64,000 bases of DNA from the NCBI GenBank assembly GCA_963716725.1, contig CAVQUB010000033.1, forward strand, positions 1 through 64,000, read 5' to 3'. Both the position numbers and the translations under genes were made by a program. Numbering within the stretch: position 1 is the stretch's first letter; each line of letters starts with the position of its first letter. Source of the DNA: an uncultured delta proteobacterium (GTDB taxonomy: Bacteria; Myxococcota_A; Polyangia; Polyangiales; Polyangiaceae). This document shows positions 1,131 through 32,000 of the stretch, piece after piece. The notes under the pieces are model-generated. The model saw nothing but the letters and a program-made list of their open reading frames with translations. It searched no databases and was not told where the DNA came from.

Positions 1131-2160
1131 CCGGCGCTTCGCCGCCGGACTGAGCGGCGCCCGCGCCGGAAGCTCGCGCAGCGAAACGCGCCGCCGCCTC
1201 GCCAACCAGCGCGATCGCCTCGAGGCCATCTGCGGCGTCGATCAGGAGGTGCCTCGCTTCGTTCGGCACCAGCCCGACGGCGTGCACGCCGTACAGTCGC
1301 TCGCTGGGGACCACGACACGACGCCATCGAATCCCGAGAGCGCGCCGCTCGACCACCAGCTCGCGGGGCCCGAGCGTGGCGCTCACCCGGTCAGTGAGCA
1401 TGAACAGCCCGACGCCGAGGATGAACCCGAAGAGCGACGCAGAGAGCGCGTAGCTCAGCAGCGCGGTGGGTTCTCCGCGGCCGATCCGCGCGCCGTGCAT
1501 CAGCGCCAAGGCGGTGCCCACTACGACCGCTCCGCCGATGACGCAGATGGCAGTTCCGAGCTCGCCCTCGAGGGGGCGCCCTCGCTCCGAGACCGCGGCG
1601 TCGGTGGGCTCCGATTTGCGGTGGCGGCGCGCTCGCCACGGCTCGGAACCCGCACGAAGGCCCCAACCCGGCGTGACCGGCAGCGGGAGGTAGGCGAGGG
1701 CGCGGCGCAGCTCACGGATCACGACGCTGGGATCCGGACTCTCGATCAGCACCACCCGATCGCCTCCCTCGATCAACAACTCGGCACGGTAGCGGGCGAA
1801 GGCCGCAGCCTCGAGGGTCGACCCCCCGGAGCTGAGCACCCAAGTGCGCGCGGCGGCCAAGGGCAGACTGCGAGCGCCGTCGTCGATGACGCCTGCGTCG
1901 AGCGTGATCCGGACGTAGCGGTCGCGGGGGCGAGCGCGGGCGCCCAGCACGAGCGCCGTCGCTGCCAGCAGTGCGGCGAAAGCCGCCCGCGCGCCGGTCA
2001 CGGGACCGGGGGCCAGGACCGGCGTGAGGGCGAAGGCGCCGATCACCGCTGCCGCCAGGAGCGACGCGCTCCAAGCTCCGCGCCTGCGGAATTCGAGACG
2101 GGCCGGGGTCGCGGTGTGCAAGAGCATCCGGCCCGGCTTTGTAGCGCGTGAACGCTGCAC
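1114..2160 (-). CDS. Hypothetical membrane protein (two TM-pair + soluble modules)
   Basis: 348-aa ORF with two pairs of hydrophobic helices, each followed by a beta-rich segment; true start may be ATG 2127. Confidence 0.6.
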   Translation of the reverse strand: MQRSRATKPGRMLLHTATPARLEFRRRGAWSASLLAAAVIGAFALTPVLAPGPVTGARAAFAALLAATALVLGARARPRDRYVRITLDAGVIDDGARSLPLAAARTWVLSSGGSTLEAAAFARYRAELLIEGGDRVVLIESPDPSVVIRELRRALAYLPLPVTPGWGLRAGSEPWRARRHRKSEPTDAAVSERGRPLEGELGTAICVIGGAVVVGTALALMHGARIGRGEPTALLSYALSASLFGFILGVGLFMLTDRVSATLGPRELVVERRALGIRWRRVVVPSERLYGVHAVGLVPNEARHLLIDAADGLEAIALVGEAAARFAARASGAGAAQSGGEAPATPPP

Positions 2161-2378
2161 GCCAACAAAAAGATTAGCGGCAGCCAGGGCGGAGGGGGGG
2201 GAACGCCACAGGCTGCCGCTGTCTGCTACTAGAGCAAGTCTCGCGCCAGTATTCTGGAACTGAATTTCAATGACTTGTCGGTCGCCGGCAGTGCAACTCT
2301 GAAAGACGGCGATTCGTGATTGAAAGAATGACGGGTTTTTGGCCGCGCGTCCAGGGTTTGCGCCATTTCACCAGGGAC

Positions 2379-4016
2379 ATGACGGGTCGATGCTCCCTCT
2401 TTCTGGTCGTGGCAGCCGCGAGCGCCTGCTCGCGCGGGGAAACGCCGACGCTGGCCAGCGCCCAAGCAGCGACCAGCGCCCAGACCCCAGAAATCAGCGT
2501 ATCGGCGGCGCCCGGACCCGCGCCCAAGGCGCGCCCACGGGTTGTCGAAGCCGTCACGCTGGCCGGGGAGAGCGCGCCGGTGCCGGCGGTCTTGGCTGCG
2601 GCGGGCAAGCCTCGGGTGCACGCCCGGGCGCTGCGCGCATGGATTTACGAGCGACCCTCCTTCCGCTCCGCGCGGCTCGGGTACCTGCGAGTCGGATCGT
2701 CTAGCCCCAGTGACGGTCGCGCGGCGGGCTTTGAAGGCTGCAAGGGCGGGTGGCACCCCGTTGAGCCCGACGGCTTCGTGTGCGTGGGCAAGCGCGCGAC
2801 CCTCGACGGAGACGATCCCGTGGTGGCCGCCACCCGCGAGCACCCACCCGATCCGACCCAGAAGCTCCCGTACATTTACGGGACGGTGCGCAAGCCGGGT
2901 CCCATCTATGGGCATCTGCCCAGCGACGAGGAGGTCGAGCAGGCCGAGCCCAAGCACGCTTCGCGGATGCAAGAGTGGCTCGACGCCGAAGGTGAGACGG
3001 GCGCCGCGTATGCCCAGGACGTCTGGCTGGGCGGCAGGGGCGAGCTGGTGCCAGCGGCGCAGGCGTGGTCCGAGAAGCTCAGCGACCCACTGCCGGCGTT
3101 CTTGCGCGACGGCGCGCAAATCCCCGGCATGCAGACCGACGACGACGAGGCCTCGGAGGTCAAGAGCACGGGCAGCACGCTGGTCACCGAGCGCATGCGT
3201 TCCCGCGTGGGCTACTCGTTCTTGCAGACCTTCCTGCACCGCGGCCGGCGCTACGGGGTGACCACGGATCTGAAGGTGATGCCGACCGATCGCCTGCGAC
3301 CGATCCGCGGCTCGGACTTCAAGGGCTTCGAGATCCCGAAGCAGATCGATTTTCCCTTTGCCATTGTGCGGCGGCCCGACGCCAAGCTGTGGCTCTGGCA
3401 GAAATCCGGGAACAAGCTGATCGACGCCGGGAGCGCGCCCTACCGCGGCTCACTGAAGCTCACGGGCAAGCAGCAGTTCTTCAAGCAGCGCCTCCACTAC
3501 GAGACGACTGAAGGCAAGTGGATCAGCGACAAGGACGCGTCGCGCCTCGATGCGGCCAAGCGCATGCCTGCCTGGGGCAAGAACGGTGAGAAGTGGATGG
3601 ACGTCAACCTGACGAAACAAACCGTCGTGCTCTACGAGGGTGAGCGCGCGGTCTACGCGACGCTGATCTCGAGCGGCGAGGCTGGGCTCGAAGATCCGAA
3701 ACACACCACCGCGACCAAACGCGGAATCTTTCGCATTCACACCAAGCACGTGACGGCGACCATGTCGTCCGACGAAGTGGGGGAGGAGTTCGAGCTCCGC
3801 GACGTGCCCTACGTGCAGTACTTCGACAAAGAAGGTTACGCGCTGCACGGCGCCTACTGGCACGACCGCTTCGGCGTGCCCAAGAGCCACGGTTGCATCA
3901 ATCTCGCGCCGGAGGACGCCCGGCGCATCTTCCACTGGACCGAGCCCCAGGTTCCGGTGGGCTGGCACGGGGTGCTCTTGCCGCTGAAGGGCACGATCAT
4001 GTTCGTGCACCCCTGA
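2379..4016 (+). CDS. L,D-transpeptidase (YkuD family) lipoprotein
   Basis: C-terminal YALHGAYWH...SHGCINL catalytic motif; signal peptide with lipobox-like ASAC. Confidence 0.9.
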   Translation: MTGRCSLFLVVAAASACSRGETPTLASAQAATSAQTPEISVSAAPGPAPKARPRVVEAVTLAGESAPVPAVLAAAGKPRVHARALRAWIYERPSFRSARLGYLRVGSSSPSDGRAAGFEGCKGGWHPVEPDGFVCVGKRATLDGDDPVVAATREHPPDPTQKLPYIYGTVRKPGPIYGHLPSDEEVEQAEPKHASRMQEWLDAEGETGAAYAQDVWLGGRGELVPAAQAWSEKLSDPLPAFLRDGAQIPGMQTDDDEASEVKSTGSTLVTERMRSRVGYSFLQTFLHRGRRYGVTTDLKVMPTDRLRPIRGSDFKGFEIPKQIDFPFAIVRRPDAKLWLWQKSGNKLIDAGSAPYRGSLKLTGKQQFFKQRLHYETTEGKWISDKDASRLDAAKRMPAWGKNGEKWMDVNLTKQTVVLYEGERAVYATLISSGEAGLEDPKHTTATKRGIFRIHTKHVTATMSSDEVGEEFELRDVPYVQYFDKEGYALHGAYWHDRFGVPKSHGCINLAPEDARRIFHWTEPQVPVGWHGVLLPLKGTIMFVHP

Positions 4017-4121
4017 CAGACCGAGAAGAACTCGGGAGCCGCGGCAGCGCGGTGGTGGGCCCAGCCCCGGTCTGCTCCTTTGTCTTCGCGACCCAGTCTG
4101 GGGAGTCGAGCGCATCGCAGC

Positions 4122-4152
4122 GGCGTCGGTGGGCGTCGGTGGGCGTCGGTGG
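4122..4152. repeat. 10-bp tandem repeat (ggcgtcggtg)x3
   Basis: Seen directly in sequence. Confidence 0.8.
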
Positions 4153-4363
4153 AAGGGAGGTGCACGGCCCTGCCAGCCTCACCGTCCGTCCCGCAGGCGT
4201 GGGCGACCATTGTTCCACGGCATGCGCCCGCGCGTGCGGCGCCATGCGTCTGCTATCTTGAGTCTAAATCGCCGTTCCATCACCGGCGACAAGCGATGAT
4301 GGGCACATCGGTTTTGTAGCGGCGCCCGACGTCGGAGGGCGTCATCGGCCTCGGCCAGCGCGG

Positions 4364-4410
4364 CCGCGGCTGCGGCTGCGGCTGCGGCCCTCGGCTTTCG
4401 GCTTTCGGCC
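4364..4410. repeat. Microsatellite-like tract of (gcggct)n and (cggcttt)2
   Basis: Seen directly, just upstream of the four-helix-bundle remnant. Confidence 0.7.
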
Positions 4411-4415
4411 GCGGG

Positions 4416-5780
4416 TCACGTCCTCTTGCCGCACTCCGGCGCGGCTCCACCTCGACCGCGCAAAGGCCGCGCCAGCTCCGTCACTTCACGACTGTGCGGC
4501 TCTTCGCTGTCACGGCCTTTGCGCGAGGGGTCGGCGAAGCCGCGCCGGAGCGCGGACGCATGAAACAACCTCCTCGAACCGAAGCCGGGGAGGCCGCTGC
4601 GGCCCTCGAGGCCGTCGTCGCCCTCGGCCTCGGGCCACGCGGCGAAGCACAGGCCGTCATGGTCTTGCTCAGTCGGCTCTGCGCCATGCTCACCGGCCTG
4701 TGCAAGAAGGCCGGGGGTTGAGCCCAGCGCGGGCGGGCCGCCGGACCTCGGCGCCGCGGTCCGTTTGCTCGCGGGCCACGGCGAAGCGCCGTCGAGCCAG
4801 CGCGCGACCGCCTCGCACAAGCTGTGCAGGCTTCGGTGTCGATGATTGCGCGTCACGTTCGCGTGCAGGTCCTGCCAAAGCCGTTCGATGCGGTTGTGGT
4901 CTGGGCAATAGGGCGGCAGGAAATGCAAACGAATCCTCGACAACCGACCCAGGGCTGCGCGCGTCGGCCGCGCTTTGTGGATGACGTAGTTGTCGCAGAT
5001 GACATGGATGACCTTGGCCTCGCGGTAGTGTTTGTCCAAGCGCTCCAGCATCTTCACGAAGAGCTCGCTGTTCTTCTTCTCAGCTCCCACCCACAGCACC
5101 GTCCCGTCGCGAGCGTCGAGTGTTCCTGCAAGGTAGCCCTTTGCGTTCTTGCCGGGCGTGAGCACCTCCTTCTGCACACCTCGTGGCATCCAGTCCAACC
5201 CGATCTTCGGGTTGAGGTGCACTTCGGCTTCATCCTCGTAGACCGCCACCTCGTCCCCGGGCAGCTCCACCACCAAGTTCCGAATCTCGGCCAACCGCCG
5301 CCGCTTCTGTCTCGACGACAGCGGGCATGCCACGGTCGGCTTCGGTCGGCCGCGACGCGCGCCTATCCGAGACAGGATGCGAGTCATCGTCGTCACGCTC
5401 ACCCGCACCGCCGTCTGCTCCTCGGTCACCCGCAAGAGCAACTCTCGCGTCCACGTCGGCCGTGGGTAGCCGAAGTCCTCGGGAGACCTCGCCACCAGGC
5501 TATTCACGGTCTGGTCCCCACGGGCGTCGGCCTTGCGCCGACCCGCAAAACGGCGCCCGTCGATCAGCGCCTCTCGGCCCCTGAAGCTGCCGAATCGCGC
5601 CACCGTGCGGTACACATGCGAGCGATCGCATCCCACCACCTCCGCCACCTGGTCGGCGCTCAGCCCCGCTGCCGCGCGCGCCAGTATCTGCGCGCGCGCG
5701 CCAGCGATCGGATCCCCGCAGCTCCGAGCCCAACGCAAAAGTCCCCGTCGCACCCGACGGCGCATGTGCGGTATCTTCAT
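4416..5780 (-). mobile_element. IS630-family transposase (ORF reads about 100 aa past the usual end)
   Basis: N-terminal HTH (LSADQVAEVVGCDRSHVYR), WTRELL winged helix, DDE motifs YEDEAEV / ICDNYVIH / LPPYCPDHNRIERLW. Confidence 0.92.
4451..4721 (+). pseudogene. Degraded four-helix-bundle protein (23S rRNA IVP/bAvd-like) remnant
   Basis: Fragments LDRA..., EGSAKPRRSAD* and, in another frame, AGEAAAALEAVVALGL...VLLSRLCAMLTGLCK resemble the family pattern LxRA...AEGxG...SAxExAAALD...LLxRxxAML; frameshifts and a stop present. Confidence 0.5.
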
Positions 5781-5923
5781 CCCGCGCCTCAACCCCGCTC
5801 AGCGTTCTGCGCCGCGGGCTTGTCGAACACATCGCGGGCGCCGTCTCGACCGAGATCCAGCCGAACGGTCGCGTTTGCCACAGCTGTCGCGACAAGAGTC
5901 GCGTAGCTCAGTTCGCGGACGCT

Positions 5924-6085
5924 TTGGAAAGCCAACGCGGCGAGCTGTCGGTGCTCGAACGCGACATCTCCGCCAAGGCCGCGCGGCACTCCGCAATCGC
6001 GGAGCACATCGGCGACATGTTCGAGCAACGCCTGAAATTGGGGCAACGCCTCGCCGACCGGGTGGCGTCCGTCGGCGGCTCGTGG
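5924..6085 (+). pseudogene. DUF1003-family membrane protein fragment
   Basis: LESQRGELSVLERDI...FEQRLKLGQRLADRVASVGGSW matches the segment before the DUF1003 TM helices; similarity ends abruptly after GGSW and the 5' part is replaced by the IS630 region. Confidence 0.6.
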
Positions 6086-6358
6086 CCGCGGAAAGGAGTC
6101 GAACGCCAACCAGCGCATGAGCTTTTTCAGACGCGGATGACCGCCGGGACGCGACAACACCTCGGTGCCGCCGCGCTGCCGGTTGCGCTCGCTCTCATCC
6201 GCGAGGCGCTCGCGCCGTGAAGCGCGCGTCGCACTTGCACGCGTCAGGACGGAGCGGCTGGCGCTTCCGGCGCGGCCATTAGGGGAGTGTTCGGGGACGC
6301 ACGTGCGTTTTGGTCACCAGTAGCGGCGGCGATGTGTAGGATTGGGGACTGAGGGAAG

Positions 6359-7741
6359 ATGCGTAGGCTCAGCATTGTCGCGGCCGGGCTGTTGAGCCTG
6401 TTCTGCTCGAAGAAGGATGCTCAAAACCGAGCCGAGCCGGAGCCCATCACGGCTGGTTCAGCCCGCTCGGCTGCGCAGTCACCAAAGCAGGAAGCGCCGA
6501 AGGTGGTGCGTTTCGCGCTCGAAAAGAAGTTCACCACGGCAGCGGAGATCTTCCCGGTCGGAGCGGCTGCCGTCGTGTGCGAAGCGCCTTGTGTGTTCCA
6601 GGAGGGGCCTCCGAAGCAGACGTGGTTAGTCGACGAGATCGGCGTCAATGAGGCTCCGACGCTGTGGCCGGGAAGCGTCTGGCAACGATATCTCAAAAAA
6701 CTTGAAGGTCGGCTCGAAGTCTCCTTCCAAGGTGAGTACCCGAAGCTCCGCGCCAAAGCGGTCGCCCACTACCACCCCTGGCACGTGTTGGTAGCGAAGC
6801 TCCAGAACAAACGCTGGGGCGAGGTTGACAGGGGCCCGGAGGACGACGCTGAAGCACTTTCCCGGTTGGGTCTGGCTCCTCGCCGATACGATGCCGCCCT
6901 GCTCACCGCGCCCGTGAACTACGATCCGAGCACGCGCCTCGTGTACGGCGCGGGTGGACCGACACTCTTGGTGTCCGCCAAGAAGTTGCACGTGTTCGAA
7001 AAGGAAAGCTGGGCGACCAGGGACGCGCCCTGGGGAAAAAATGCCGACGCGCGACGTCTCGAGGGCGGCGGGACGCTGGTGCTGTACGACGGCGGCGGAT
7101 ACTGGGTGAGCGAGGATCTGAAGGTACAGGACATCGAGTTTGAAGATCCGAAGGCGGCAACTTCGCTGTCGTTCCTCATGCTGGGCAAGACCGTTCGCGT
7201 CGCGTCTGCCGCCAAGAGCCTGCGATTGTATCGCCCCGTTGAGACTGCGGGTCTCCGAGCGCACACGCCCGAAGCACGAGAGAAGCTACCGCAACGACGC
7301 GAGACTGGCGCCGTACCTCCCGTGAGCGACGGCGCGGTGGCTTCGAGCGGGATGCCGGTACCGGTGCGCTTTACCAGTGCGTGCAAGACGCCCTTCGTGA
7401 TCCTCGCGACGCCAGCGGGGCTTTGGGACCAGCAGGGCGGACGCGACGGAACCACCGGCAAGGGCCTCGCCGGCCATCACGAGCTCGCGCCCAAGCTGAC
7501 CTTTGTTGCGTATCGGCGGGGCCAAACGAACTACTTTGGCGCTCAAGCCAAGGACGAAGCATCCGCGCGCGGGCTGGTTGCACTGCTGCAGAAGAACGTC
7601 CCTGCTATGAAGCCGCAGCTCGGCTGCCTAGACGCGGTGCGACACATTGGAGATCCCTACACGGCGCCCAGGGACATGCAGATCGTGTATTTGCATCTTG
7701 GCTCGGGCAGAGAAATGCCGCTTGGACCTCCGCCGGGTTGA
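6359..7741 (+). CDS. Hypothetical lipoprotein
   Basis: 460-aa ORF, signal peptide MRRLSIVAAGLLSLF-C, no recognised domain. Confidence 0.7.
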   Translation: MRRLSIVAAGLLSLFCSKKDAQNRAEPEPITAGSARSAAQSPKQEAPKVVRFALEKKFTTAAEIFPVGAAAVVCEAPCVFQEGPPKQTWLVDEIGVNEAPTLWPGSVWQRYLKKLEGRLEVSFQGEYPKLRAKAVAHYHPWHVLVAKLQNKRWGEVDRGPEDDAEALSRLGLAPRRYDAALLTAPVNYDPSTRLVYGAGGPTLLVSAKKLHVFEKESWATRDAPWGKNADARRLEGGGTLVLYDGGGYWVSEDLKVQDIEFEDPKAATSLSFLMLGKTVRVASAAKSLRLYRPVETAGLRAHTPEAREKLPQRRETGAVPPVSDGAVASSGMPVPVRFTSACKTPFVILATPAGLWDQQGGRDGTTGKGLAGHHELAPKLTFVAYRRGQTNYFGAQAKDEASARGLVALLQKNVPAMKPQLGCLDAVRHIGDPYTAPRDMQIVYLHLGSGREMPLGPPPG

Positions 7742-23916: not shown

Positions 23917-25293
23917 TCAGTGCCTCGCCGCGCCGTAGGCTCGCGCTGCCAGGCCTTCGCTGCCCGCGTGAACGCCGATGTGCACGACCTCCTTCGCGCC
24001 CTCTGCCGCAGCTTGGCCGAGCACGGGCGCGACGCGCGCGGCGGTGGCCTTGCCGGCCGCGTCCACGGCGTGGTGCACCCCAGGTACCGAACCGACCGCG
24101 TACCCGACTCCCGCCAGCGCCACGCTCAGAGCCGCGTGCGTAGCTGCACCGTCGAAGTCCTTGTTCAGCGCGCCGATGGCCTTGGCCTGATCGGCGAGGG
24201 TGGCCGCGTGCTGCTTCACCTCGGCGCCCAGGGTTTCGAGCTGCTTGGCCGTCTCGGCGACGCCCGCGTGATCTCCGCTGCGGATAGCCCCCACCTGCCG
24301 AGCGTACACGGTCTCGAATCGGTCGGAGGCCTGGAGCAGTTTCACCGCGGTCTGATTGGCTGCGCGGATCTTGCCGCTGAGTTCCCCGGACATGAAGGCA
24401 CCGGCCCGATCGGCTTCGTGCAGCGCCTTCTTCAGGGGGGCTGCGCTGCGGGTGACCGCCGCTTCGCCGGCCGCGACGATGCCTGCGCCGAGGGTGCCTG
24501 TGGCGGCGCCGGCCCCGACGAGAGTTTCGGTGATCCGACCGAGCTCGCCCATCGCGTGCACCGTACGGTGGACCTGTCCGACGAGCTTGCGCACGGCGCT
24601 TGCGTTGGCCTTTGCATTGGCGAGCGCCCGCGCGGTGAGCTCGGTCGTGGACCCGGGCTGCCGGGCCCGGGCCTCGGCGGCCGCGATCTGCACGTTGTCC
24701 TTCTTCTGCAACGCCACGGCACTCTCGAAGCGTTCGCCGGCTCGGACTCGACCGAGGATGTCACCGCGCCCGTCCTTGTCGAAAGCTGCAAGCGCCGCGA
24801 TGCTGCGCTCACACGCTCCGTAGCGGCCAGCGCCCTGCGCTCCGCTCTGTCGCACTGCCGCGGTGACCAGCTCGCGAGTGTCCGCATCGAGGCCCCGGAG
24901 TCGAACACCAATCAGCGCGTCCGCGTGTTCTGGGTGGCGGGCCAGCGTCTCTTGCACGAAGGCGAAGCGCGCCTCCTGCTTGATCTGGTCCGGGGACTTG
25001 TTCGAGTTGGCGTAACGCGCGGCGAACGCGTCGGCGTCTTGCCCCGAAGCACGGGCCAACTCCCCGACGGCGGAGCGCGCGGCTTCGACCCGCGCTCGAC
25101 CCGTGTCGGCCGCGGCGAAGGCGGCCAGCTTGCTGCCCCGGCCTTTGCCGGCCGCGTCCACCAGGGTTTGGGTTCCCTTCGGCGGAAGGGGGGAGGTCTT
25201 GGTCTTGGTGGCGCCCCCGGCGGCGGCCTTCGTCTCGTCGGGCTCAATCGGTCGAGGCGTGATCGCGCGAGCCTCGGTACGGGGGATGCTCAT
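23917..25293 (-). CDS. Hypothetical Ala-rich helical protein
   Basis: Long ORF with coding-like codon usage; no signal peptide; two hydrophobic Gly/Ala stretches; stop abuts the next gene start. Confidence 0.7.
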   Translation of the reverse strand: MSIPRTEARAITPRPIEPDETKAAAGGATKTKTSPLPPKGTQTLVDAAGKGRGSKLAAFAAADTGRARVEAARSAVGELARASGQDADAFAARYANSNKSPDQIKQEARFAFVQETLARHPEHADALIGVRLRGLDADTRELVTAAVRQSGAQGAGRYGACERSIAALAAFDKDGRGDILGRVRAGERFESAVALQKKDNVQIAAAEARARQPGSTTELTARALANAKANASAVRKLVGQVHRTVHAMGELGRITETLVGAGAATGTLGAGIVAAGEAAVTRSAAPLKKALHEADRAGAFMSGELSGKIRAANQTAVKLLQASDRFETVYARQVGAIRSGDHAGVAETAKQLETLGAEVKQHAATLADQAKAIGALNKDFDGAATHAALSVALAGVGYAVGSVPGVHHAVDAAGKATAARVAPVLGQAAAEGAKEVVHIGVHAGSEGLAARAYGAARH

Positions 25294-25587
25294 GCCGCCG
25301 CCATCGGCCGTCAGGCCCGGCCGGTTGCTAGAAAACCCCCGTTCGGCGCGCGACCCTTCAGAGCCTGTGAAAGAATCCCCGCCGCCCACGAAGGAAGGAG
25401 CACCGGCAGCGCTTCGGGGTCGCCGGCATGGGGGCGAGGCGCGCGAGAGACGCTGGGTCGGGTCTGTGCGGAGCCGCGAGCAGCAGTGTCGCGGACTGGG
25501 CGCGAGCGCTTCCGACCTGGACGCCTTCCCGCCCGGAACTCTACCGCGCTCGAAGGCGAAACGGTCCTGCCAAGCGTCAGTTCCGGA

Positions 25588-25833
25588 CCCACTGCGCTGC
25601 CGCTGACAAGGACCTGAGGGGGCGTCCCGTGCACGACCCTTGGAAGTCCCTGGCGAGGGACGACCCTTGGAAGTCCCTGGCGAGGGACGACCCTTGGAAG
25701 TCCCTGGCGAGGGACGACCCTTGGAAGTCCCTGGCGAGGGACGACCCTTGGAAGTCCCTGGCGAGGGACGCCCCTTGGAGGGGGGCGTGCAAGCACCGTC
25801 CCACGCTCGGCGTCACGAGGGAAAGAGCACCGC
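25588..25833. repeat. Left arm of long imperfect inverted repeat flanking the HNH gene (contains hairpin and tandem array)
   Basis: cccactgcgctgccgctg...tcccgtgcac...gtgcaagcaccgtc...agggaaagagcaccgc aligns with the reverse complement of 27301-27397. Confidence 0.85.
25633..25778. repeat. 27-bp tandem repeat, 5 perfect copies plus a partial copy (acgacccttggaagtccctggcgaggg)
   Basis: Copies start at 25633, 25660, 25687, 25714 and 25741; no spacers. Confidence 0.97.
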
Positions 25834-26022
25834 ATCCCCATTTCTTTCTTGACGCGTTTCCAGGCGACTCGGGCTCGCACTTCGCCGGGCATGTCACCGA
25901 AGGCGTCTCTGTTGCGCGACGAAGCTCGCCCATCGTGTTTCGCTCGAGCGACGACGCGCGACGCGTTTGGACGCGTGAAACGCGCTCACCGTGTCGGCCG
26001 CGAGGCCAAAAAACAGCGTGTT

Positions 26023-27318
26023 ATGCCAGAAAGCATGCACGCTCTCTCTTCGGTCTCCGATCGCGAGCTTCGCGAGCGCCTCTCCTCCGCCGTGAGCGCC
26101 GAGCAGCTGGCTTCTGCCGACGTCATCTTCCACCTGGCGGAGCTCGACCGCCGAAAGCTCTACCTCGAGGACGCCTGCTCCTCACTCTTCGCGTACTGCG
26201 TGGAGCGGCTCGGCTACTCCGAGGACGGCGCGAGCAAGCGAGTCCGTGTCGCCCGCTTGGTTCTGCGTTTTCCCCAGGCCCTCGACGAGCTCGCGAGCGG
26301 CGCCATCCACCTGACCGGACTGTTCCTGCTCTCCGGGCACCTCACGGAAGACAACGCCAATCGACTCATCGCCGAGGCTCGCGGCAAGTCGAAGCGGCAG
26401 CTCGAGGAGCTGCTCGCTCGGTGGGCGCCCCGGTCCGACGTACCGGCGACCATCACCCCGAGCGGGCCCGAGCCAGCTCGAGCGGAGTTATCAACAATGT
26501 CCGGGACAGGTGGCTCCGAGCTGTCGGCGCCGCCGCCATCGGCGCACCGTCCTCGTGTCGAGCCGCTCTCGGCCACGAGCTTCCGCGTGGAATTCACCGC
26601 CAGTGCCACGCTCCGCGACAAGCTCGAACACGCCCGGAACCTCCTCAGCCACGCCGTGCCGAGCGGGGATCTCGCGACCCTGATCGAGCGAGCCATCGAT
26701 CAGCTCATCGCCGTGGAGACGAAGCGCCGCGCGGGCGCGGGCCAGCCACGCAAGCGCCGTGAAACTCGCGCCGGCTCGCGCCACGTGCCGGTGGAGGTCC
26801 AGCGCGCGGTGCGGGAGCGGGATGGCAACCAGTGCACCTTCGTCGATGCCGAGGGACGCCGCTGCTCCGAGAATAGACCGTCCGGCCGGGCCGGAGGAGC
26901 GCCGTCCGCTGATGCGAACAGTCGCAAGGAGCCATCTCGAGTCAGGACGCTGAACACGAGTGGTTTCCTGACCATCGAGCACGTCGACCCGTACGCGATG
27001 GGAGGACCAACGACAGTGGATAACTGCTGCCTGCTTTGTTCGGCTCACAACGCCCACCGGGCGCGACAGGTCTACGGCGAGCAGCACGTCCGGAAGAAGG
27101 TCTCGGAGGCTCGCGCGGGCCGGGAAGCGAGCGGTGTGTCTGCGGGGACTGCGGCCGAGCTGAAGAGCGAAGTGTTCGAGAAGGTGCTGGCGGCTCTGCT
27201 TCACTCGGGGTTCAAGCGGCACGAGGCGCGGCGAGCCCTCGAACAGGTGCGCTCGCTCGGAGTCGAGCCGCAGCTCGAGCCCGTGCTGCGCGGAGCGCTG
27301 GCGGTACTCACTCCCTGA
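26023..27318 (+). CDS. HNH endonuclease with DUF222-like N-terminus and RuvA C-terminal-like tail
   Basis: N-terminal SDRELRERL...HLAELDRRKLY...SSLFAYCVERLGYSE; RDGNQC...RC...EHVDPYAMGGPTTVDNCCLLCSAHN; C-terminal VLAALLHSGFKRHEARRAL...EPVLRGALAVL; alternative start 26035. Confidence 0.88.
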   Translation: MPESMHALSSVSDRELRERLSSAVSAEQLASADVIFHLAELDRRKLYLEDACSSLFAYCVERLGYSEDGASKRVRVARLVLRFPQALDELASGAIHLTGLFLLSGHLTEDNANRLIAEARGKSKRQLEELLARWAPRSDVPATITPSGPEPARAELSTMSGTGGSELSAPPPSAHRPRVEPLSATSFRVEFTASATLRDKLEHARNLLSHAVPSGDLATLIERAIDQLIAVETKRRAGAGQPRKRRETRAGSRHVPVEVQRAVRERDGNQCTFVDAEGRRCSENRPSGRAGGAPSADANSRKEPSRVRTLNTSGFLTIEHVDPYAMGGPTTVDNCCLLCSAHNAHRARQVYGEQHVRKKVSEARAGREASGVSAGTAAELKSEVFEKVLAALLHSGFKRHEARRALEQVRSLGVEPQLEPVLRGALAVLTP

Positions 27319-27397
27319 GACGGTTCGTGCACACCCCCGACAAAGGGGGGGGTGCACGGGATGCCGCCTTTGGTCCCGGCAGCGGCAGCGCCGTGGG
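27301..27397. repeat. Right arm of inverted repeat with strong hairpin
   Basis: Overlaps the last HNH codons; hairpin cgtgcac-a-ccccc-gacaaag-ggggg-g-gtgcacg at 27326-27358. Confidence 0.85.
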
Positions 27398-27427
27398 CAC
27401 GAATGCCGACGGATAGAAGTGTTCGTG

Positions 27428-28693
27428 ATGAGCTCTTCACACTCAGATCCGAAACGCGGCGCCCGACTTCGACAGGCCCATCGTGAGCAACTCGGCTGGG
27501 GGCGCATCGATCTGGACGCGCAGGTACCTCACGACCACCCCGTGCGTGCCATCGCCGCGGTGATCGACCGCCTGGACCTCTCGAAGCTCTACGCTCGCAT
27601 CGATGCACGCGACTCGAACCCCGGAGCGCCGGCCATCGACCCCAAGCTCTTGCTCAGCCTGTGGGTGTACGCCACCAGCGACGGCGAGAACAGCGCTCGG
27701 GAGATCCAGCGCCTGACCGAGCTGCACGCCGCCTATCGGTGGCTGTGCGGCGGGGTGAGGCTCAACCACCACACGCTCAGCGACTTTCGCAGCCACAACG
27801 CCGAGGTGTTCGACGACCTGATCACGCAGGTGCTGGCCTTGCTCATGAGCCACGACCTGGTGGACCTCATCCGTGTCGCGCAGGACGGCACGCGCGTACG
27901 GGCCAGCGCCGGAGCGTGTTCTTTTCGCAAGGGCACCACGCTGGAGGCTCTGCGCCAGGAAGCTCGTGCACATCTGGCCGCGGTCACGGCAGACACCGAG
28001 AGCGGCTCGCGGCGAGCCGCGGCGCAGAAGCGTGCGGCCCAGGATCGCCTGGACCGGCTCGACGCGGCGCTCGCGCAGTTGCCCGGGGTCACGAAGACCA
28101 AGAGCAAGAGCGGCGCCAAGGACCCGACCCCTCGAGTGTCGACGACCAATCCGCAGGCACGGGTGATGAAGATGGGCGACGGAGGATTCCGGCCCGCCTA
28201 CAACGTGCAGCTCGCCACGACCGCCGACGACGCGCGGGTCATCGTCGGTGTCGCCGTCACCCACCGCGGCAGCGACATGGGCGAATCGACTCCGATGCTC
28301 GAGCAGATCGAGAAGCGGACGGGCGTCCGGCCACTAGAGCTCCTCGTCGATGGGGGATACGCGAAGCATGAAGCCATCGACGAAGCGGCCGCGCGCAACG
28401 TCACCGTCTACGCTCCGCTGCCCAAGCCCCGCGACGACGACGGCTCTGACCCTCACCGGCCGAGGGATACCGACAGCGCAGCCGTTGCCGCCTGGAGACA
28501 GCGCATGGCCACCGACAAGGCCAAGCAAATCTACCGGCAACGGGCCGCGACCGCCGAGACCGTCCACGCGGACGCCAAAACGCACCGCGGGCTCGACTCG
28601 CTGACCCTGCGGGGACGGGGCAAGGCACTGGCCAGCGTGACGCTCTTCGCGCTCACCTACGACATCCTGCGCGCCATCACACTCGGCGTCTGA
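27428..28693 (+). CDS. IS1182-family transposase
   Basis: VPHDHPVRAI, GAPAIDPKLLLSLWVYA, AYRWLCGG, HHTLSDFR (DUF772); DDE motifs AQDGTRVRASA / LVDGGY / RAATAETV. Confidence 0.93.
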   Translation: MSSSHSDPKRGARLRQAHREQLGWGRIDLDAQVPHDHPVRAIAAVIDRLDLSKLYARIDARDSNPGAPAIDPKLLLSLWVYATSDGENSAREIQRLTELHAAYRWLCGGVRLNHHTLSDFRSHNAEVFDDLITQVLALLMSHDLVDLIRVAQDGTRVRASAGACSFRKGTTLEALRQEARAHLAAVTADTESGSRRAAAQKRAAQDRLDRLDAALAQLPGVTKTKSKSGAKDPTPRVSTTNPQARVMKMGDGGFRPAYNVQLATTADDARVIVGVAVTHRGSDMGESTPMLEQIEKRTGVRPLELLVDGGYAKHEAIDEAAARNVTVYAPLPKPRDDDGSDPHRPRDTDSAAVAAWRQRMATDKAKQIYRQRAATAETVHADAKTHRGLDSLTLRGRGKALASVTLFALTYDILRAITLGV

Positions 28694-28827
28694 CCCCGCC
28701 ACCGCTCTGCTTCCGCGCTCGGACCACCCGAATCGCGTCGCGCCCCACGCGCTCCCGCCCTGCGCCTGGGACTCGCCCTCGCTCGATTTCCCGGCGGCGC
28801 ACGCTCAACCGATTTCTTCTCACCCTC

Positions 28828-30456
28828 TCAGTCTTTGGCCAAGAACGGATAGCGCCAGCTGGTCGGGGGCGCGAAGGTCTCCTTGATCGTTCGGGGGGAC
28901 ACCCAGCGGATCAGGTTCCAGAGCGAGCCGGCCTTGTCGTTGGTGCCCGACGCTCGGGCGCCGCCGAAGGGCTGTTGCCCGACCACCGCGCCCGTCGGTT
29001 TGTCGTTGATGTAGAAGTTGCCGGCGGCGTGCCGCAGGCGCTCGGTGGCGGTCTCGATGAAGCCGCGATCCTGGGAGAACACGGCCCCCGTGAGCGCGTA
29101 GGGCGAGGTCTCGTCGCAGAGGGTCAAGGCATCGTCCACGCGAGCCGCGTCGTAGACGTACCAGCTGAGCACCGGGCCGAAGATCTCCTCGCGCATGCTC
29201 TTGGACTTGGGGTCGGTCGCCTCGATCAGGGTGGGCTGGATGAACCAACCGACCTTGTCGTCGTAGGTCCCGCCGGCCAGGATCTTCGAGCCGTCGCCGC
29301 GGGCGTGCTCGATGTAGCCCACGTGGTCGCGGTAGGCCTTCTTGTCGATCACCGCGCCCATGAAGTTCGAGAAGTCGCCCACGTCGCCCACGGTCAGCTC
29401 CGCGATCATCGCCACCACGCGCTGGCGCACGTCGTCGGCGATGGTGCTCGGCAAGTAGACCCGCGAGGCAGCGCTGCACTTCTGTCCCTGAAATTCGAAG
29501 GCGCCCCGCACGATGGCCACGGCGAGGGCCTGCCGGTCCGCGCTCTCGTGGGCGAAGATGAAGTCCTTGCCGCCGGTCTCGCCGACCAGCCGGGGATAGG
29601 TGCGGTAGCGGTCGATGCGCTCGCCGATGCGCCGCCACATTCCCTGAAACACGCCGGTCGATCCGGTGAAGTGCACGCCGGCGAGGTGCGGGCTGTCGAG
29701 CACGAGATCGCCGACGGCGGCCCCCGAGCCGTAGACCAGGTTGATGACTCCTGGCGGCAGCCCCGCCTCCATCAAGAGCTGCATGATGAAGTGCGCGGAG
29801 TAGACCGCGGTCGACGCCGGCTTCCACACCGCGGTGTTGCCCAAGATGGCCGGCGCCGTCGGCAGGTTGCCGGCGATGGACGTGAAGTTGAAGGGCGAGA
29901 CCGCGAACACGAAGCCCTCGAGGGGTCGCGACTCGACCTGGTTCCAGATGCCCGGACCCGAGATGGGCTGCTCGGCCAAGATGCGCTCGGCGAAGTGCAC
30001 GTTGAAACGGAAGAAGTCGATCAGCTCGCAGGCCGCGTCGATCTCGGCCTGATGCGCGGTCTTGCTCTGGCCGAGCATGGTCGCGGCGTTGAGCACCGGG
30101 CGATACTTGGTGGCGAGCAACTCCGCGGCCTTGAGGAAGATGGCCGCCCGCGAGCCCTGGGACATGCGTGCCCAGTCGGGTTGCGCCGCGACCGCCGCGT
30201 CGATGGCCGCGCCCACCTCGGTCGGCCCTGCGAGGTGATAGTGACCGAGCAGGTGGGCGTGCGCGTGGGGCATGACCGCGGCGCCCAGCTTGCCCGTGCG
30301 GATCTCCTTGCCGCCGATGATCAGCGGCATCTCGGTCTCGGTCCCCGCCAGGCGCGCGAGCTCGGCCTTCAGCGCCGCGCGCTCCGGTGTGCCCGGCGCG
30401 TGGCTCAGCACGGGCTCGTTGAAGGGAGGCGGCGCGTGGCTCAGGGCGTTCAGCAT
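28828..30456 (-). CDS. pruA: Delta-1-pyrroline-5-carboxylate (L-glutamate gamma-semialdehyde) dehydrogenase
   Basis: QAEIDAACELIDFFRFN, SPFNFTSIAGNL, FTGST, GETGGKDF, FEFQGQKCSAASR, GARASGTNDKAG. Confidence 0.95.
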   Translation of the reverse strand: MLNALSHAPPPFNEPVLSHAPGTPERAALKAELARLAGTETEMPLIIGGKEIRTGKLGAAVMPHAHAHLLGHYHLAGPTEVGAAIDAAVAAQPDWARMSQGSRAAIFLKAAELLATKYRPVLNAATMLGQSKTAHQAEIDAACELIDFFRFNVHFAERILAEQPISGPGIWNQVESRPLEGFVFAVSPFNFTSIAGNLPTAPAILGNTAVWKPASTAVYSAHFIMQLLMEAGLPPGVINLVYGSGAAVGDLVLDSPHLAGVHFTGSTGVFQGMWRRIGERIDRYRTYPRLVGETGGKDFIFAHESADRQALAVAIVRGAFEFQGQKCSAASRVYLPSTIADDVRQRVVAMIAELTVGDVGDFSNFMGAVIDKKAYRDHVGYIEHARGDGSKILAGGTYDDKVGWFIQPTLIEATDPKSKSMREEIFGPVLSWYVYDAARVDDALTLCDETSPYALTGAVFSQDRGFIETATERLRHAAGNFYINDKPTGAVVGQQPFGGARASGTNDKAGSLWNLIRWVSPRTIKETFAPPTSWRYPFLAKD

Positions 30457-30509: not shown

Positions 30510-31274
30510 TCAGAACGCCGTGAAGCCGCCGTCGACGCACAGGGTCTGCCCCGTCACGAAGGACGCGGCGTCGCTGGCCAGGAACAACGTGGCGGCGGCG
30601 ATCTCTTCCGGGCGTCCGACGCGCCCGAGGGCGGTGTGGCGGTTGGCGTGCTCGACCATCTCGGGGCTGGCCAAGATGGCCGCGGCGAGCCGCGTCTCGA
30701 CCAGGCCGGGCGCGATGGCGTTGACGCGCACGCCGCTCTGGCCGAGCTCGAAGGCCAGGGTCTGCGTCATGCTCCCGAGGGCCGCCTTGGTCATGCCGTA
30801 GACGCCTTGAAGCGGCGCGGCGCGCAGGCCCGCGACGCTGGTGATGCTAACGATGGATCCCGTGCCCTTGCGGTCGATGATGTGCTGCGCAAACACGCGG
30901 CTGGTCTCGAAGGCGCCGCGCAGGTTCACCTCGAAGGTCTTCTCGTAGGCGCCGGGATCGATGTTGACCATGGGTCCGAAGTACGGATTGGTGCCGGCGC
31001 AGTTGACCAGCACGTCGACGCGGCCGAAGCGCTCGATGGCGCTCTTCACGAGCGCGTGGCACTGGTCCGTGTTGCCGACGTGGGCCGCGACGGCGAGCGC
31101 ATCGGTTCCGCGATCGCGCAACTTGGCCGCGACCGCCTCGACGCCCTCGAGCTTGCGTGACGAGACGACGAGCTTGGCGCCCGCATCGGCGAAGGCCAGG
31201 GCGATGGCTTCGCCGATGCCTCGGCTGGCGCCGCTGACGACGGCAATCTTGTCTCGAAGGTGAATGATCGACAT
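30510..31274 (-). CDS. Short-chain dehydrogenase/reductase
   Basis: SGASRGIG, VNCAG, YGMTK catalytic motif, VNAIAPGLVET. Confidence 0.95.
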   Translation of the reverse strand: MSIIHLRDKIAVVSGASRGIGEAIALAFADAGAKLVVSSRKLEGVEAVAAKLRDRGTDALAVAAHVGNTDQCHALVKSAIERFGRVDVLVNCAGTNPYFGPMVNIDPGAYEKTFEVNLRGAFETSRVFAQHIIDRKGTGSIVSITSVAGLRAAPLQGVYGMTKAALGSMTQTLAFELGQSGVRVNAIAPGLVETRLAAAILASPEMVEHANRHTALGRVGRPEEIAAATLFLASDAASFVTGQTLCVDGGFTAF

Positions 31275-31400
31275 GGTTCGCCCGTGTACGGCTCGCGGCG
31301 CGGGGCGGCAAGGGGCTCGGGAAATCCCAGAAAACCGTCGCTCACGACCTCAATTGCGTCGATGTCAGCCCCAGCATCATCAACGCGCCGCTGAGCGTGG

Positions 31401-32000
31401 TCAGCTAACGCACTGACCGGCCTGGCAGTTGCCGGTGCAGCAGCGAGGGTTAGCTCCGTCCTGAGGACCGCTCCCGCAGGAGAGCCCCGTCTTGACGCAG
31501 CACTTGCCGCTCTGACAGTCGTCGCTGGCGTTGCACTGTTCCTTGCACTGGCATGCGGTCCCCACCGAGAACCCGCCCTGGGCCACGCACTTGCTCGACT
31601 GGCAGACGTCCGGGCAATAGCAGTTGCCGCAATTTTCGCTGCGGTTGATCCCGCAATTATCGTTGCCGGTCGTGGGCCCGCAATCTGAGGCCTTCTGCGT
31701 GCAGAAGGTGTTCTTGTCCCACGGGACGCAGGCGTCTCCCCCGGCGCCACCGCTCGGGGCTCCGCCACCGCTCGGGGCTCCGCCACCGCTCGGGGCTCCG
31801 CCACCGCTCGGGGCTCCGCCACCGCTCGGGGCTCCGCCACCGCTCGGGGCTCCGCCACCGCCGGCCACACCACCTCCGCCCGGCCCTCCACCCGTGCTGG
31901 CGCCGCCGGTGGAGGTGCCGCCCGCGCCCTCGGTCGTCGTGCTGCTGCTGCACGCCGCGAAACACCCGAACACCAGCAACGCCAGGGTCGTGCGAATCAT
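31401..32000 (-). CDS. Gly-rich, Cys-rich lipoprotein
   Basis: Lipobox FAAC; (GGGAPS)6 linker; Cys-rich C-terminus. Confidence 0.8.
   Translation of the reverse strand: MIRTTLALLVFGCFAACSSSTTTEGAGGTSTGGASTGGGPGGGGVAGGGGAPSGGGAPSGGGAPSGGGAPSGGGAPSGGGAPSGGAGGDACVPWDKNTFCTQKASDCGPTTGNDNCGINRSENCGNCYCPDVCQSSKCVAQGGFSVGTACQCKEQCNASDDCQSGKCCVKTGLSCGSGPQDGANPRCCTGNCQAGQCVS
31746..31860. repeat. 18-bp coding tandem repeat x6 (gccaccgctcggggctcc) encoding GGGAPS
   Basis: Six perfect copies seen directly. Confidence 0.95.

Follow-up and report, generated by a model that had tools for sequence, protein, structure and literature searches.

Between pruA and a co-oriented host gene that starts at 25293, the 64,000-nt stretch of DNA analyzed here (the window) carries two plus-strand genes, the first for an HNH endonuclease and the second for an IS1182-family transposase. 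Are these the contents of two mobile elements that happen to adjoin, or of a single one, and if there is only one, how does a nuclease gene come to travel in an insertion sequence (IS)? The first-pass annotation, made from the letters of this DNA, had suggested that an IS1182-like element encloses the HNH cassette, either through a nested insertion or as a nuclease passenger. Our analysis supports the enclosure: a left repeat lies where it had been placed, and none adjoins the transposase. We think it likely that 25361-28827, within DNA of approximately 70% G+C, is one IS1182-family transposon with an HNH module nested in its left arm, and that the two have since spread together, the HNH gene being cargo.

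The extent of the element depends on its ends. The earlier proposal paired the right end with a site 2 kb to the left of the transposase, at 13 of 18 ungapped positions (25360-25377 against the reverse complement of 28811-28828), and noted TCA beside both. We reproduced the 13/18 identity and find the triplet at 25358-25360 and at 28828-28830. Taken alone, such a match and a 3-bp repeat are weak evidence. We compared 80 loci that encode relatives of the transposase, the best of them 66-73% identical in amino acid sequence and none from the same genome. One, L005, has a clear pair of 20-nt terminal repeats; when this repeat was used as a query and mismatches were allowed, the left end, the right end or both were located in all 13 of the closest loci. 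We then derived a weight matrix from 20 terminal repeats found in 13 relatives, leaving aside the two ends in the window, and scored both strands of the 64 kb with it. The two best sites are the proposed right and left repeats, at 24.3 and 23.4 bits, compared to 13.2 bits for the third. The relatives' own ends score 23.5-34.2 bits with this matrix, and in 60 first-order Markov simulations of 64 kb the best score per run averaged 12.7 ± 2.4 bits with a maximum of 17.2 bits. Directly upstream of the transposase, no plus-strand site in 26900-27460 exceeds −0.4 bits; this range includes 27398-27427, where a left repeat would have contradicted the enclosure. The next six sites in rank, at ≤13.2 bits, all fall outside the element. 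No other right-repeat-like site occurs in 25380-28808, leaving 28809-28828 as the sole partner of the left repeat.

The flanking triplets agree with this pairing. When GAG...CTC is taken as the ends, the triplets on the two sides agree in each of the 18 complete relatives, being T[C/G]A in 17 of them and TCT in L018, and the targets of the relatives lie mostly inside a CTNAG-like palindrome. Terminal repeats with TCA on both sides define an element proper of 3467 bp, or 3469 bp from outer repeat end to outer repeat end. The IS appears to have entered pruA at its stop codon and to have duplicated 3 bp, TCA. Since this triplet is the stop codon itself (TGA on the minus strand), pruA was left intact; its product is complete, covering positions 2-531 of the 533 in model TIGR01236 at 760.9 bits (cut-off 613.6). 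The coordinates also confirm that excision would leave the pruA TGA intact and 64 bp from the ATG at 25293.

The transposase scores 326.5 bits with the NCBIfam model transpos_IS1182 (NF033551; cut-off 270) and exceeds the Pfam cut-offs for DUF772, DDE_Tnp_1 and DDE_Tnp_1_6. In transposase type, terminal inverted repeats and a target duplication like that of its close relatives, the element belongs to the IS1182 family. The protein is full length for its lineage, since siblings with 85-89% identity (P0122-P0125) start at the position of ATG 27428. An N-terminal PTLFPLPP-type motif is present in 10 of 11 aligned relatives of 66-73% identity and absent from the window's lineage. We considered whether the HNH module had truncated the transposase N-terminus and rejected the idea: a profile of the motif finds nothing above noise in 25361-25620, and the 85-89% siblings share the start.

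These observations bear on a reading in which the enclosure is an accident of two events, the left repeat being a remnant of a different, older insertion and the transposase copy being truncated at its 5' end. Such a history would account for the poor 13/18 match between the window's repeats, and under the T[C/G]A rule the middle bases of the two triplets would agree by chance one time in two. However, the left end is arranged in the same way at three further sites whose flanks differ (described below), the transposase is full length for its lineage, and the right-end read-through of P0125, an 85% sibling, aligns with window 28671-28832. We regard an accidental enclosure as scarcely credible.

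If one element spans this interval, it is a long one. The 18 complete relatives measure 1476-3188 bp with a median of 1657 bp; the window element is twice the usual length because its left arm holds an 1810-bp HNH module (25588-27397). Without the module, 1659 bp would remain between the outer repeat ends. In 12 of the 13 closest loci, nucleotide similarity to the window is confined to approximately 27446-28704, and in L013 it covers only 27559-28685. Apart from the terminal repeats, neither the HNH region nor 25361-25587 has a nucleotide match in these 13 loci, and an HNH homologue is encoded in none of the 80 related loci. We could place the left repeat in 32 of the 80, with a median left arm of approximately 150 nt. 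The sole other relative with both a long left arm and credible ends is L018, from Planctomycetota (3996-7183, 3188 bp), which has an IS701-family transposase gene nested in that arm. The left arm appears tolerant of insertions. An apparent 2.8-kb left arm in L040 was dismissed: its repeat site scores only 17.9 bits, and the ORFs between, judged by eye, are of ordinary host type.

The left arms of some relatives also contain a gene of a different kind. Seven of the 13 closest relatives (L001, L004, L006, L008, L010, L011 and L012) have a longer arm of 420-590 nt. There, past the left repeat and ahead of the transposase, a small DUF6788 gene is encoded on the opposite strand (2138-2509(-) in L001, 4942-5304(-) in L012, about 5497-5796(-) in L006; partial in L008). 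Its product of approximately 120 residues has a Cys- and His-containing motif (Pfam E = 6e-29). Apparently this is an accessory gene, so far unstudied, of the IS subgroup; we found no paper on DUF6788 in open-access text.

The HNH module has boundaries of its own. Its inverted repeats, imperfect and approximately 50 nt long, form the strongest inverted repeat in 25001-29000 (46.4 bits). In simulated 4-kb sequences the best score averaged 29.6 ± 4.2 bits and reached 46.4 bits in 1 run of 150. The outer part of the left module repeat is kept in a diverged copy, P0246, and that of the right one in the read-through tail of P0026, a 66% homologue of the HNH protein. A strong hairpin (27326-27358; DNA fold z-score −3.99) follows the HNH stop codon just inside the right module repeat. 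Just inside the left one lies a tandem array of 27-bp units. Each unit can adopt either a short G+C stem closed by an ACGA loop or a 6-bp hairpin that competes with it, and the array in its entirety folds much better than shuffled versions of it (z = −4.9). The most likely history, in our view, is that a separate HNH element landed on one occasion in the left, non-coding arm of an IS of approximately 1.66 kb. The transposase (27428-28693) would act on both terminal repeats and move everything between them, and the joined unit would then have spread whole, its HNH gene being cargo dispensable for movement.

The 27-bp array also attracted a match to the Guanidine-II (mini-ykkC) model, at 25652-25694 and 25706-25748 on the plus strand, with 30.4 bits each against a gathering score of 32 (E = 0.0023). 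We do not accept these repeats as riboswitches. The matches are below threshold, the next gene is an HNH nuclease approximately 250 nt away, and the number of units varies from 1 to 7 among copies.

Evidence that the joined unit occurs elsewhere comes from its left junction. A minus-strand ORF crosses this junction (25892 to 25311), and we used its translation as a protein query, expecting the same spurious ORF in other copies. Six proteins were recovered: P0241, P0243, P0244, P0245, the window's own P0242, and P0246, a relative with 48% identity. P0241, P0243, P0244 and P0245 share one order of parts, namely module left end, 27-bp repeats, segment A of the left arm and left terminal repeat. 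In P0241, P0244 and P0245 the homology stops exactly at the outer end of the left repeat; their flanks differ from one another and from the window's, and the first codon beyond the repeat has A as its initial letter, in keeping with the T[C/G]A rule. Segment A and the left module repeat, when translated, are 99% identical to the window in P0244 and P0245. P0246, in which segment A is 71% identical, keeps the order of module left end, segment A and left terminal repeat at 48% translated identity, indicating that the association between module and IS is not recent.

With the same left-end arrangement present at several sites, the HNH gene probably now moves as cargo. The two possibilities first raised for this locus, nested insertion and passenger, are not exclusive: nesting would describe the origin, as suggested by the module's own repeats and the residue of 1659 bp, and passenger would describe the present state. 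A HMMER search of 1.84 billion representative sequences with translated segment A and module repeat returned only P0244, P0245, P0246 and an unrelated repeat protein (P0247), and no cassette-free sibling. Two 89% transposase siblings, P0123 and P0124, come from contigs of 1624 and 1658 bp, which is, circumstantially, what a collapsed cassette-free IS would yield.

One of the copies has a further peculiarity. Just outside its left repeat, at residues ~178-208, P0244 contains a second, diverged left-arm-plus-repeat segment (64.5% identity over 31 aa to window 25348-25440), so that IS ends are stacked side by side there.

Table 1. Features of the element, its host locus and the proteins translated across left junctions. 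Positions are those of the window; for the junction proteins, the contig is given instead.
Feature	Position or contig	Strand	Remarks
Host gene downstream of pruA, co-oriented	23917..25293	-	ATG at 25293; now 3.47 kb from pruA
Left target-site duplication TCA	25358..25360		same triplet at 28828-28830
Left terminal inverted repeat (IRL) of IS1182-family element	25360..25379	+	second-best matrix site in the window
Segment A, left arm between IRL and HNH module	25380..25587	+	non-coding; kept in P0244, P0245 and P0246
Left inverted repeat of HNH module	25588..25639	+	pairs with 27347-27397
27-bp tandem repeat	25633..25779	+	5.4 copies; Tandem Repeats Finder score 287, 99% matches
HNH endonuclease gene (predicted)	26023..27318	+	431 aa; helical N-terminal domain, HNH core, RuvA-domain-III-like tail
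In-frame insertion in HNH core	26878..26964	+	87 nt (29 aa); absent from 13 of 13 aligned relatives
Right inverted repeat of HNH module	27347..27397	+	pairs with 25588-25639
Short leader, module to transposase start	27398..27427	+	99% sibling P0121 matches from 27413 on
IS1182-family DDE transposase	27428..28693	+	424 aa; ATG 27428; start in the ORF list is GTG 27419
Right terminal inverted repeat (IRR)	28809..28828	-	best matrix site in the window
Right target-site duplication TCA	28828..28830		pruA stop codon; same triplet at 25358-25360
pruA (L-glutamate gamma-semialdehyde dehydrogenase)	28828..30456	-	stop codon at 28830-28828; host gene intact
P0241	798,724-bp contig		7 27-bp units; complete left-end arrangement, then own flank
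P0242	140,664-bp contig		5 27-bp units; window's own ORF
P0243	448,439-bp contig		6 27-bp units; same arrangement, frameshifted; ends on TGA at target triplet
P0244	247,026-bp contig		2 27-bp units; complete left-end arrangement, then own flank
P0245	1,214-bp contig		1 27-bp unit; left arm and left repeat, own flank; diverges inside module
P0246	longest contig 2,648 bp		0 27-bp units; diverged relative, 48% identity

The junction between module and transposase is less uniform. P0121, a sibling with 99% identity to the transposase, has a different stretch of 34 residues upstream of 27413, of which the first four codons fit 27403-27412. This implies 92 extra nt at 27412/27413, flanked by a short direct repeat, and the difference could be either a small insertion in P0121 or a deletion in the window.

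Could the unit that multiplied be smaller than the whole element? The left repeat, segment A and the HNH module might form a non-autonomous unit moved in trans, with the adjoining transposase peculiar to this locus. The copies are seen at left junctions only, P0121 differs upstream of 27413, and cluster member counts are unequal, 53 for the transposase compared to 7 + 22 for the HNH protein. All three facts would suit such a unit, but the only partner for the left repeat is 28809-28828, beyond the transposase, the same TCA stands at both ends, and the element minus its module has the usual size for the family. We consider movement in trans very improbable.

Several of these observations nevertheless weigh against a single transposon that spread as a whole. 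The two terminal repeats resemble each other poorly (13/18), and at least one sibling, P0121, differs at the junction of module and transposase. For the other copies, a transposase and a right terminal repeat following the module on its right side are presumed from the left junctions. P0245 leaves the window sequence at the inner end of the 27-bp repeats (~25781) and enters unrelated sequence; not every copy, then, need hold the HNH gene. No target duplication is found around the module's own inverted repeats, and we encountered no HNH module beyond the bounds of an IS, so its independent mobility is presumed. Finally, the pairing of P0244 with P0001, a homologue of the HNH protein discussed below, on one contig is read from equal contig size.

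What, then, is the cargo? The HNH protein matches Pfam HNH (PF01844) at 21.4 bits, exactly the cut-off, and the HNH and RuvA_C profiles match all 14 aligned family members. Across 67 sequences, E319, H320, C271, C281, C339 and H342 are invariant and N334 and N343 nearly so. The profile match and the conserved catalytic and zinc-binding residues identify it as a putative HNH endonuclease with the beta-beta-alpha-metal fold. Its family comprises 566 homologues, mainly in Myxococcota and mostly from Polyangiaceae and Myxococcales assemblies, with several per genome in Polyangiaceae assemblies. Several members lie on equally long contigs and many on contigs of 1.3-5 kb, as expected of repeats. A search of 72,556 plasmids by tblastn returned no match to the protein. 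HNH proteins with a RuvA_C-like tail thus form a large, unstudied family whose members behave like repeats.

The AlphaFold model of the protein (pLDDT 79) has a confident helical N-terminal domain, HNH core and helical tail. A fold search of this model against the PDB gave no match at E ≤ 0.001. Domain by domain, it offers weak leads: the modeled N-terminal domain resembles ParB/Noc, and other parts resemble McrA and RuvA domain III. The tail (residues ~377-431) superposes on RuvA with an rmsd of 1.3-1.7 Å over 46-48 columns, at Foldseek E-values above 4, and a profile search against PDB sequences gave E = 0.032 for RuvA domain III and E = 0.077 for McrA. Domain III is the part of RuvA that contacts RuvB.

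The window's copy of the gene is unusual in having an in-frame insertion within the HNH core. The additional 29 residues are absent even from P0002, which is otherwise 99% identical, and present in P0001, an HNH protein with a single substitution. They are modeled as a disordered loop (pLDDT < 50 for residues 289-313), and the 87-nt sequence was not seen repeated elsewhere in the window. P0001 comes from a single contig of 247,026 bp, and the contig of P0244 is also 247,026 bp long. If the two share one contig, a copy with the insertion has also transposed. Transposition of a copy with an altered HNH core would point to the DDE enzyme as the mover.

Nucleases carried by transposons have well-known precedents. 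TnpB and IscB ride in IS200/IS605/IS607 elements, promote the retention of those elements and are ancestors of CRISPR effectors; IscB has a RuvC domain split by an HNH domain and takes its guide RNA from the element's end. To our knowledge, the transposon-borne retention nucleases (TnpB and IscB) all reside in IS200/IS605/IS607 elements. The window element resembles them as a transposon with a nuclease gene besides its transposase, an analogy drawn in the first-pass annotation. As membership, the analogy does not hold. The window protein has an HNH domain only: the guided_IscB model scores 17.8 bits against a cut-off of 175, through its HNH part alone, and no RuvC family was found in the Pfam search. 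Rfam reported no IscB-associated (HEARO) RNA in 25000-29200 at E ≤ 1. The transposase, moreover, is a DDE enzyme, compared to the Y1 or serine enzymes of those elements.

The HNH gene might still be a working accessory and not a hitchhiker. It could cut empty or donor sites or bind the repeat array, and so aid retention or copying in the manner of TnpB and IscB in IS200/IS605 elements, or it could serve as a host defense nuclease. The association has persisted over the divergence seen in P0246 (48% translated identity), the family retains its catalytic and zinc-binding positions, and the DUF6788 gene in the same arm of relatives indicates that this arm does hold accessory genes. A RuvA-domain-III-like tail in all 14 members would suit action at recombination intermediates. 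Against a working role, the protein lacks a RuvC domain and the locus a match to any guide-RNA family, a copy with 29 extra residues in its HNH core has still spread, the gene accompanies none of the 80 related IS loci, and the neat boundaries of the 1810-bp module, which has inverted repeats of its own, suggest an insertion. On balance, we find an accessory function unlikely.

A bolder version would have a Myxococcota lineage of the IS1182 family recruit an HNH nuclease, with its ParB/Noc-like head and RuvA-domain-III-like tail, as a partner; alternatively, the module might represent an undescribed class of HNH-only mobile elements with inverted repeats of approximately 50 nt. A partner nuclease would recognize the 27-bp palindromic array or the emptied donor site and, perhaps via RuvB, steer repair toward retention or copying. 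If so, it would be a protein-guided counterpart of retention by TnpB and IscB that arose independently in a cut-and-paste IS. We give these ideas little credence. Our preferred reading remains that of an HNH module that nested in the left arm and now travels with the IS.

IS elements with passenger genes inside their ends are known as transporter IS (tIS). The window element would be like a tIS in that its terminal repeats enclose a gene, presumably dispensable for transposition, that probably moves along with the IS; the left-end arrangement recurs in four other copies, three of them with a distinct flank. With simple IS1182 insertion sequences, in which one DDE transposase lies between short terminal inverted repeats, it shares its transposase, terminal repeats, palindrome-like target and 3-bp duplication. 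It differs from them in being doubled in length by the HNH module and in belonging to a lineage without the PTLFPLPP-type motif.

Some IS1182 members target palindromes, according to a review cited in one paper (PMC4923244). The same paper describes TnSha1, in which IS1272, of the IS1182 family, and an upstream sh-fabI gene are mobilized through a surrogate left repeat (PMC4923244). The surrogate outer repeat is 69% similar, the IS keeps its own left repeat, and TnSha1 inserts into hairpins with deletions and without duplication (PMC4923244). The two cases are alike in that an IS1182-family transposase moves a unit of approximately 3 kb whose passenger lies upstream of the transposase and inside an outer left repeat. 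They differ in that the outer repeat here is a normal family repeat, with no inner repeat and with a 3-bp duplication, and in that the cargo is a nuclease module with its own inverted repeats, whereas that of TnSha1, as described, is a metabolic gene. In open-access text we found no report of a DDE IS that carries an HNH nuclease as its passenger.

A second comparison concerns the nuclease itself. The REP13E12 or DUF222-HNH repeats of mycobacteria are genomic repeats with a multi-copy HNH gene of approximately 400 aa and a helical N-terminal domain (PMC10589994). The gene in the window is likewise multi-copy, of similar size and predicted to have a helical N-terminal domain. It differs in its RuvA_C-like tail, in its mainly Myxococcota distribution and, here, in its location inside an IS1182 element. 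DUF222 had no match in the window's HNH protein up to E = 5 and matched 1 of 14 relatives at E = 0.032.

If an HNH nuclease is stably carried by a DDE-type IS at several sites, this would be either a clean case of one selfish element hitchhiking in another or a sign that nucleases came to assist retention on more than one occasion. For annotation, the consequence is practical: the element is twice the length that an IS finder would expect, and its true left end lies 2 kb from the transposase.

The window contains no second copy of the HNH gene or of the transposase gene. A promoter and terminator scan of 25200-28900 yielded nothing exceeding shuffled expectation, and the host gene at 23917..25293 has no Pfam or NCBIfam match. 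Near the element, two minus-strand ORFs, 31401-32000(-) and 31046-31891(-), encode short tandem peptide repeats unrelated to it, built from approximately six copies of a Gly/Pro/Ser-rich heptad.

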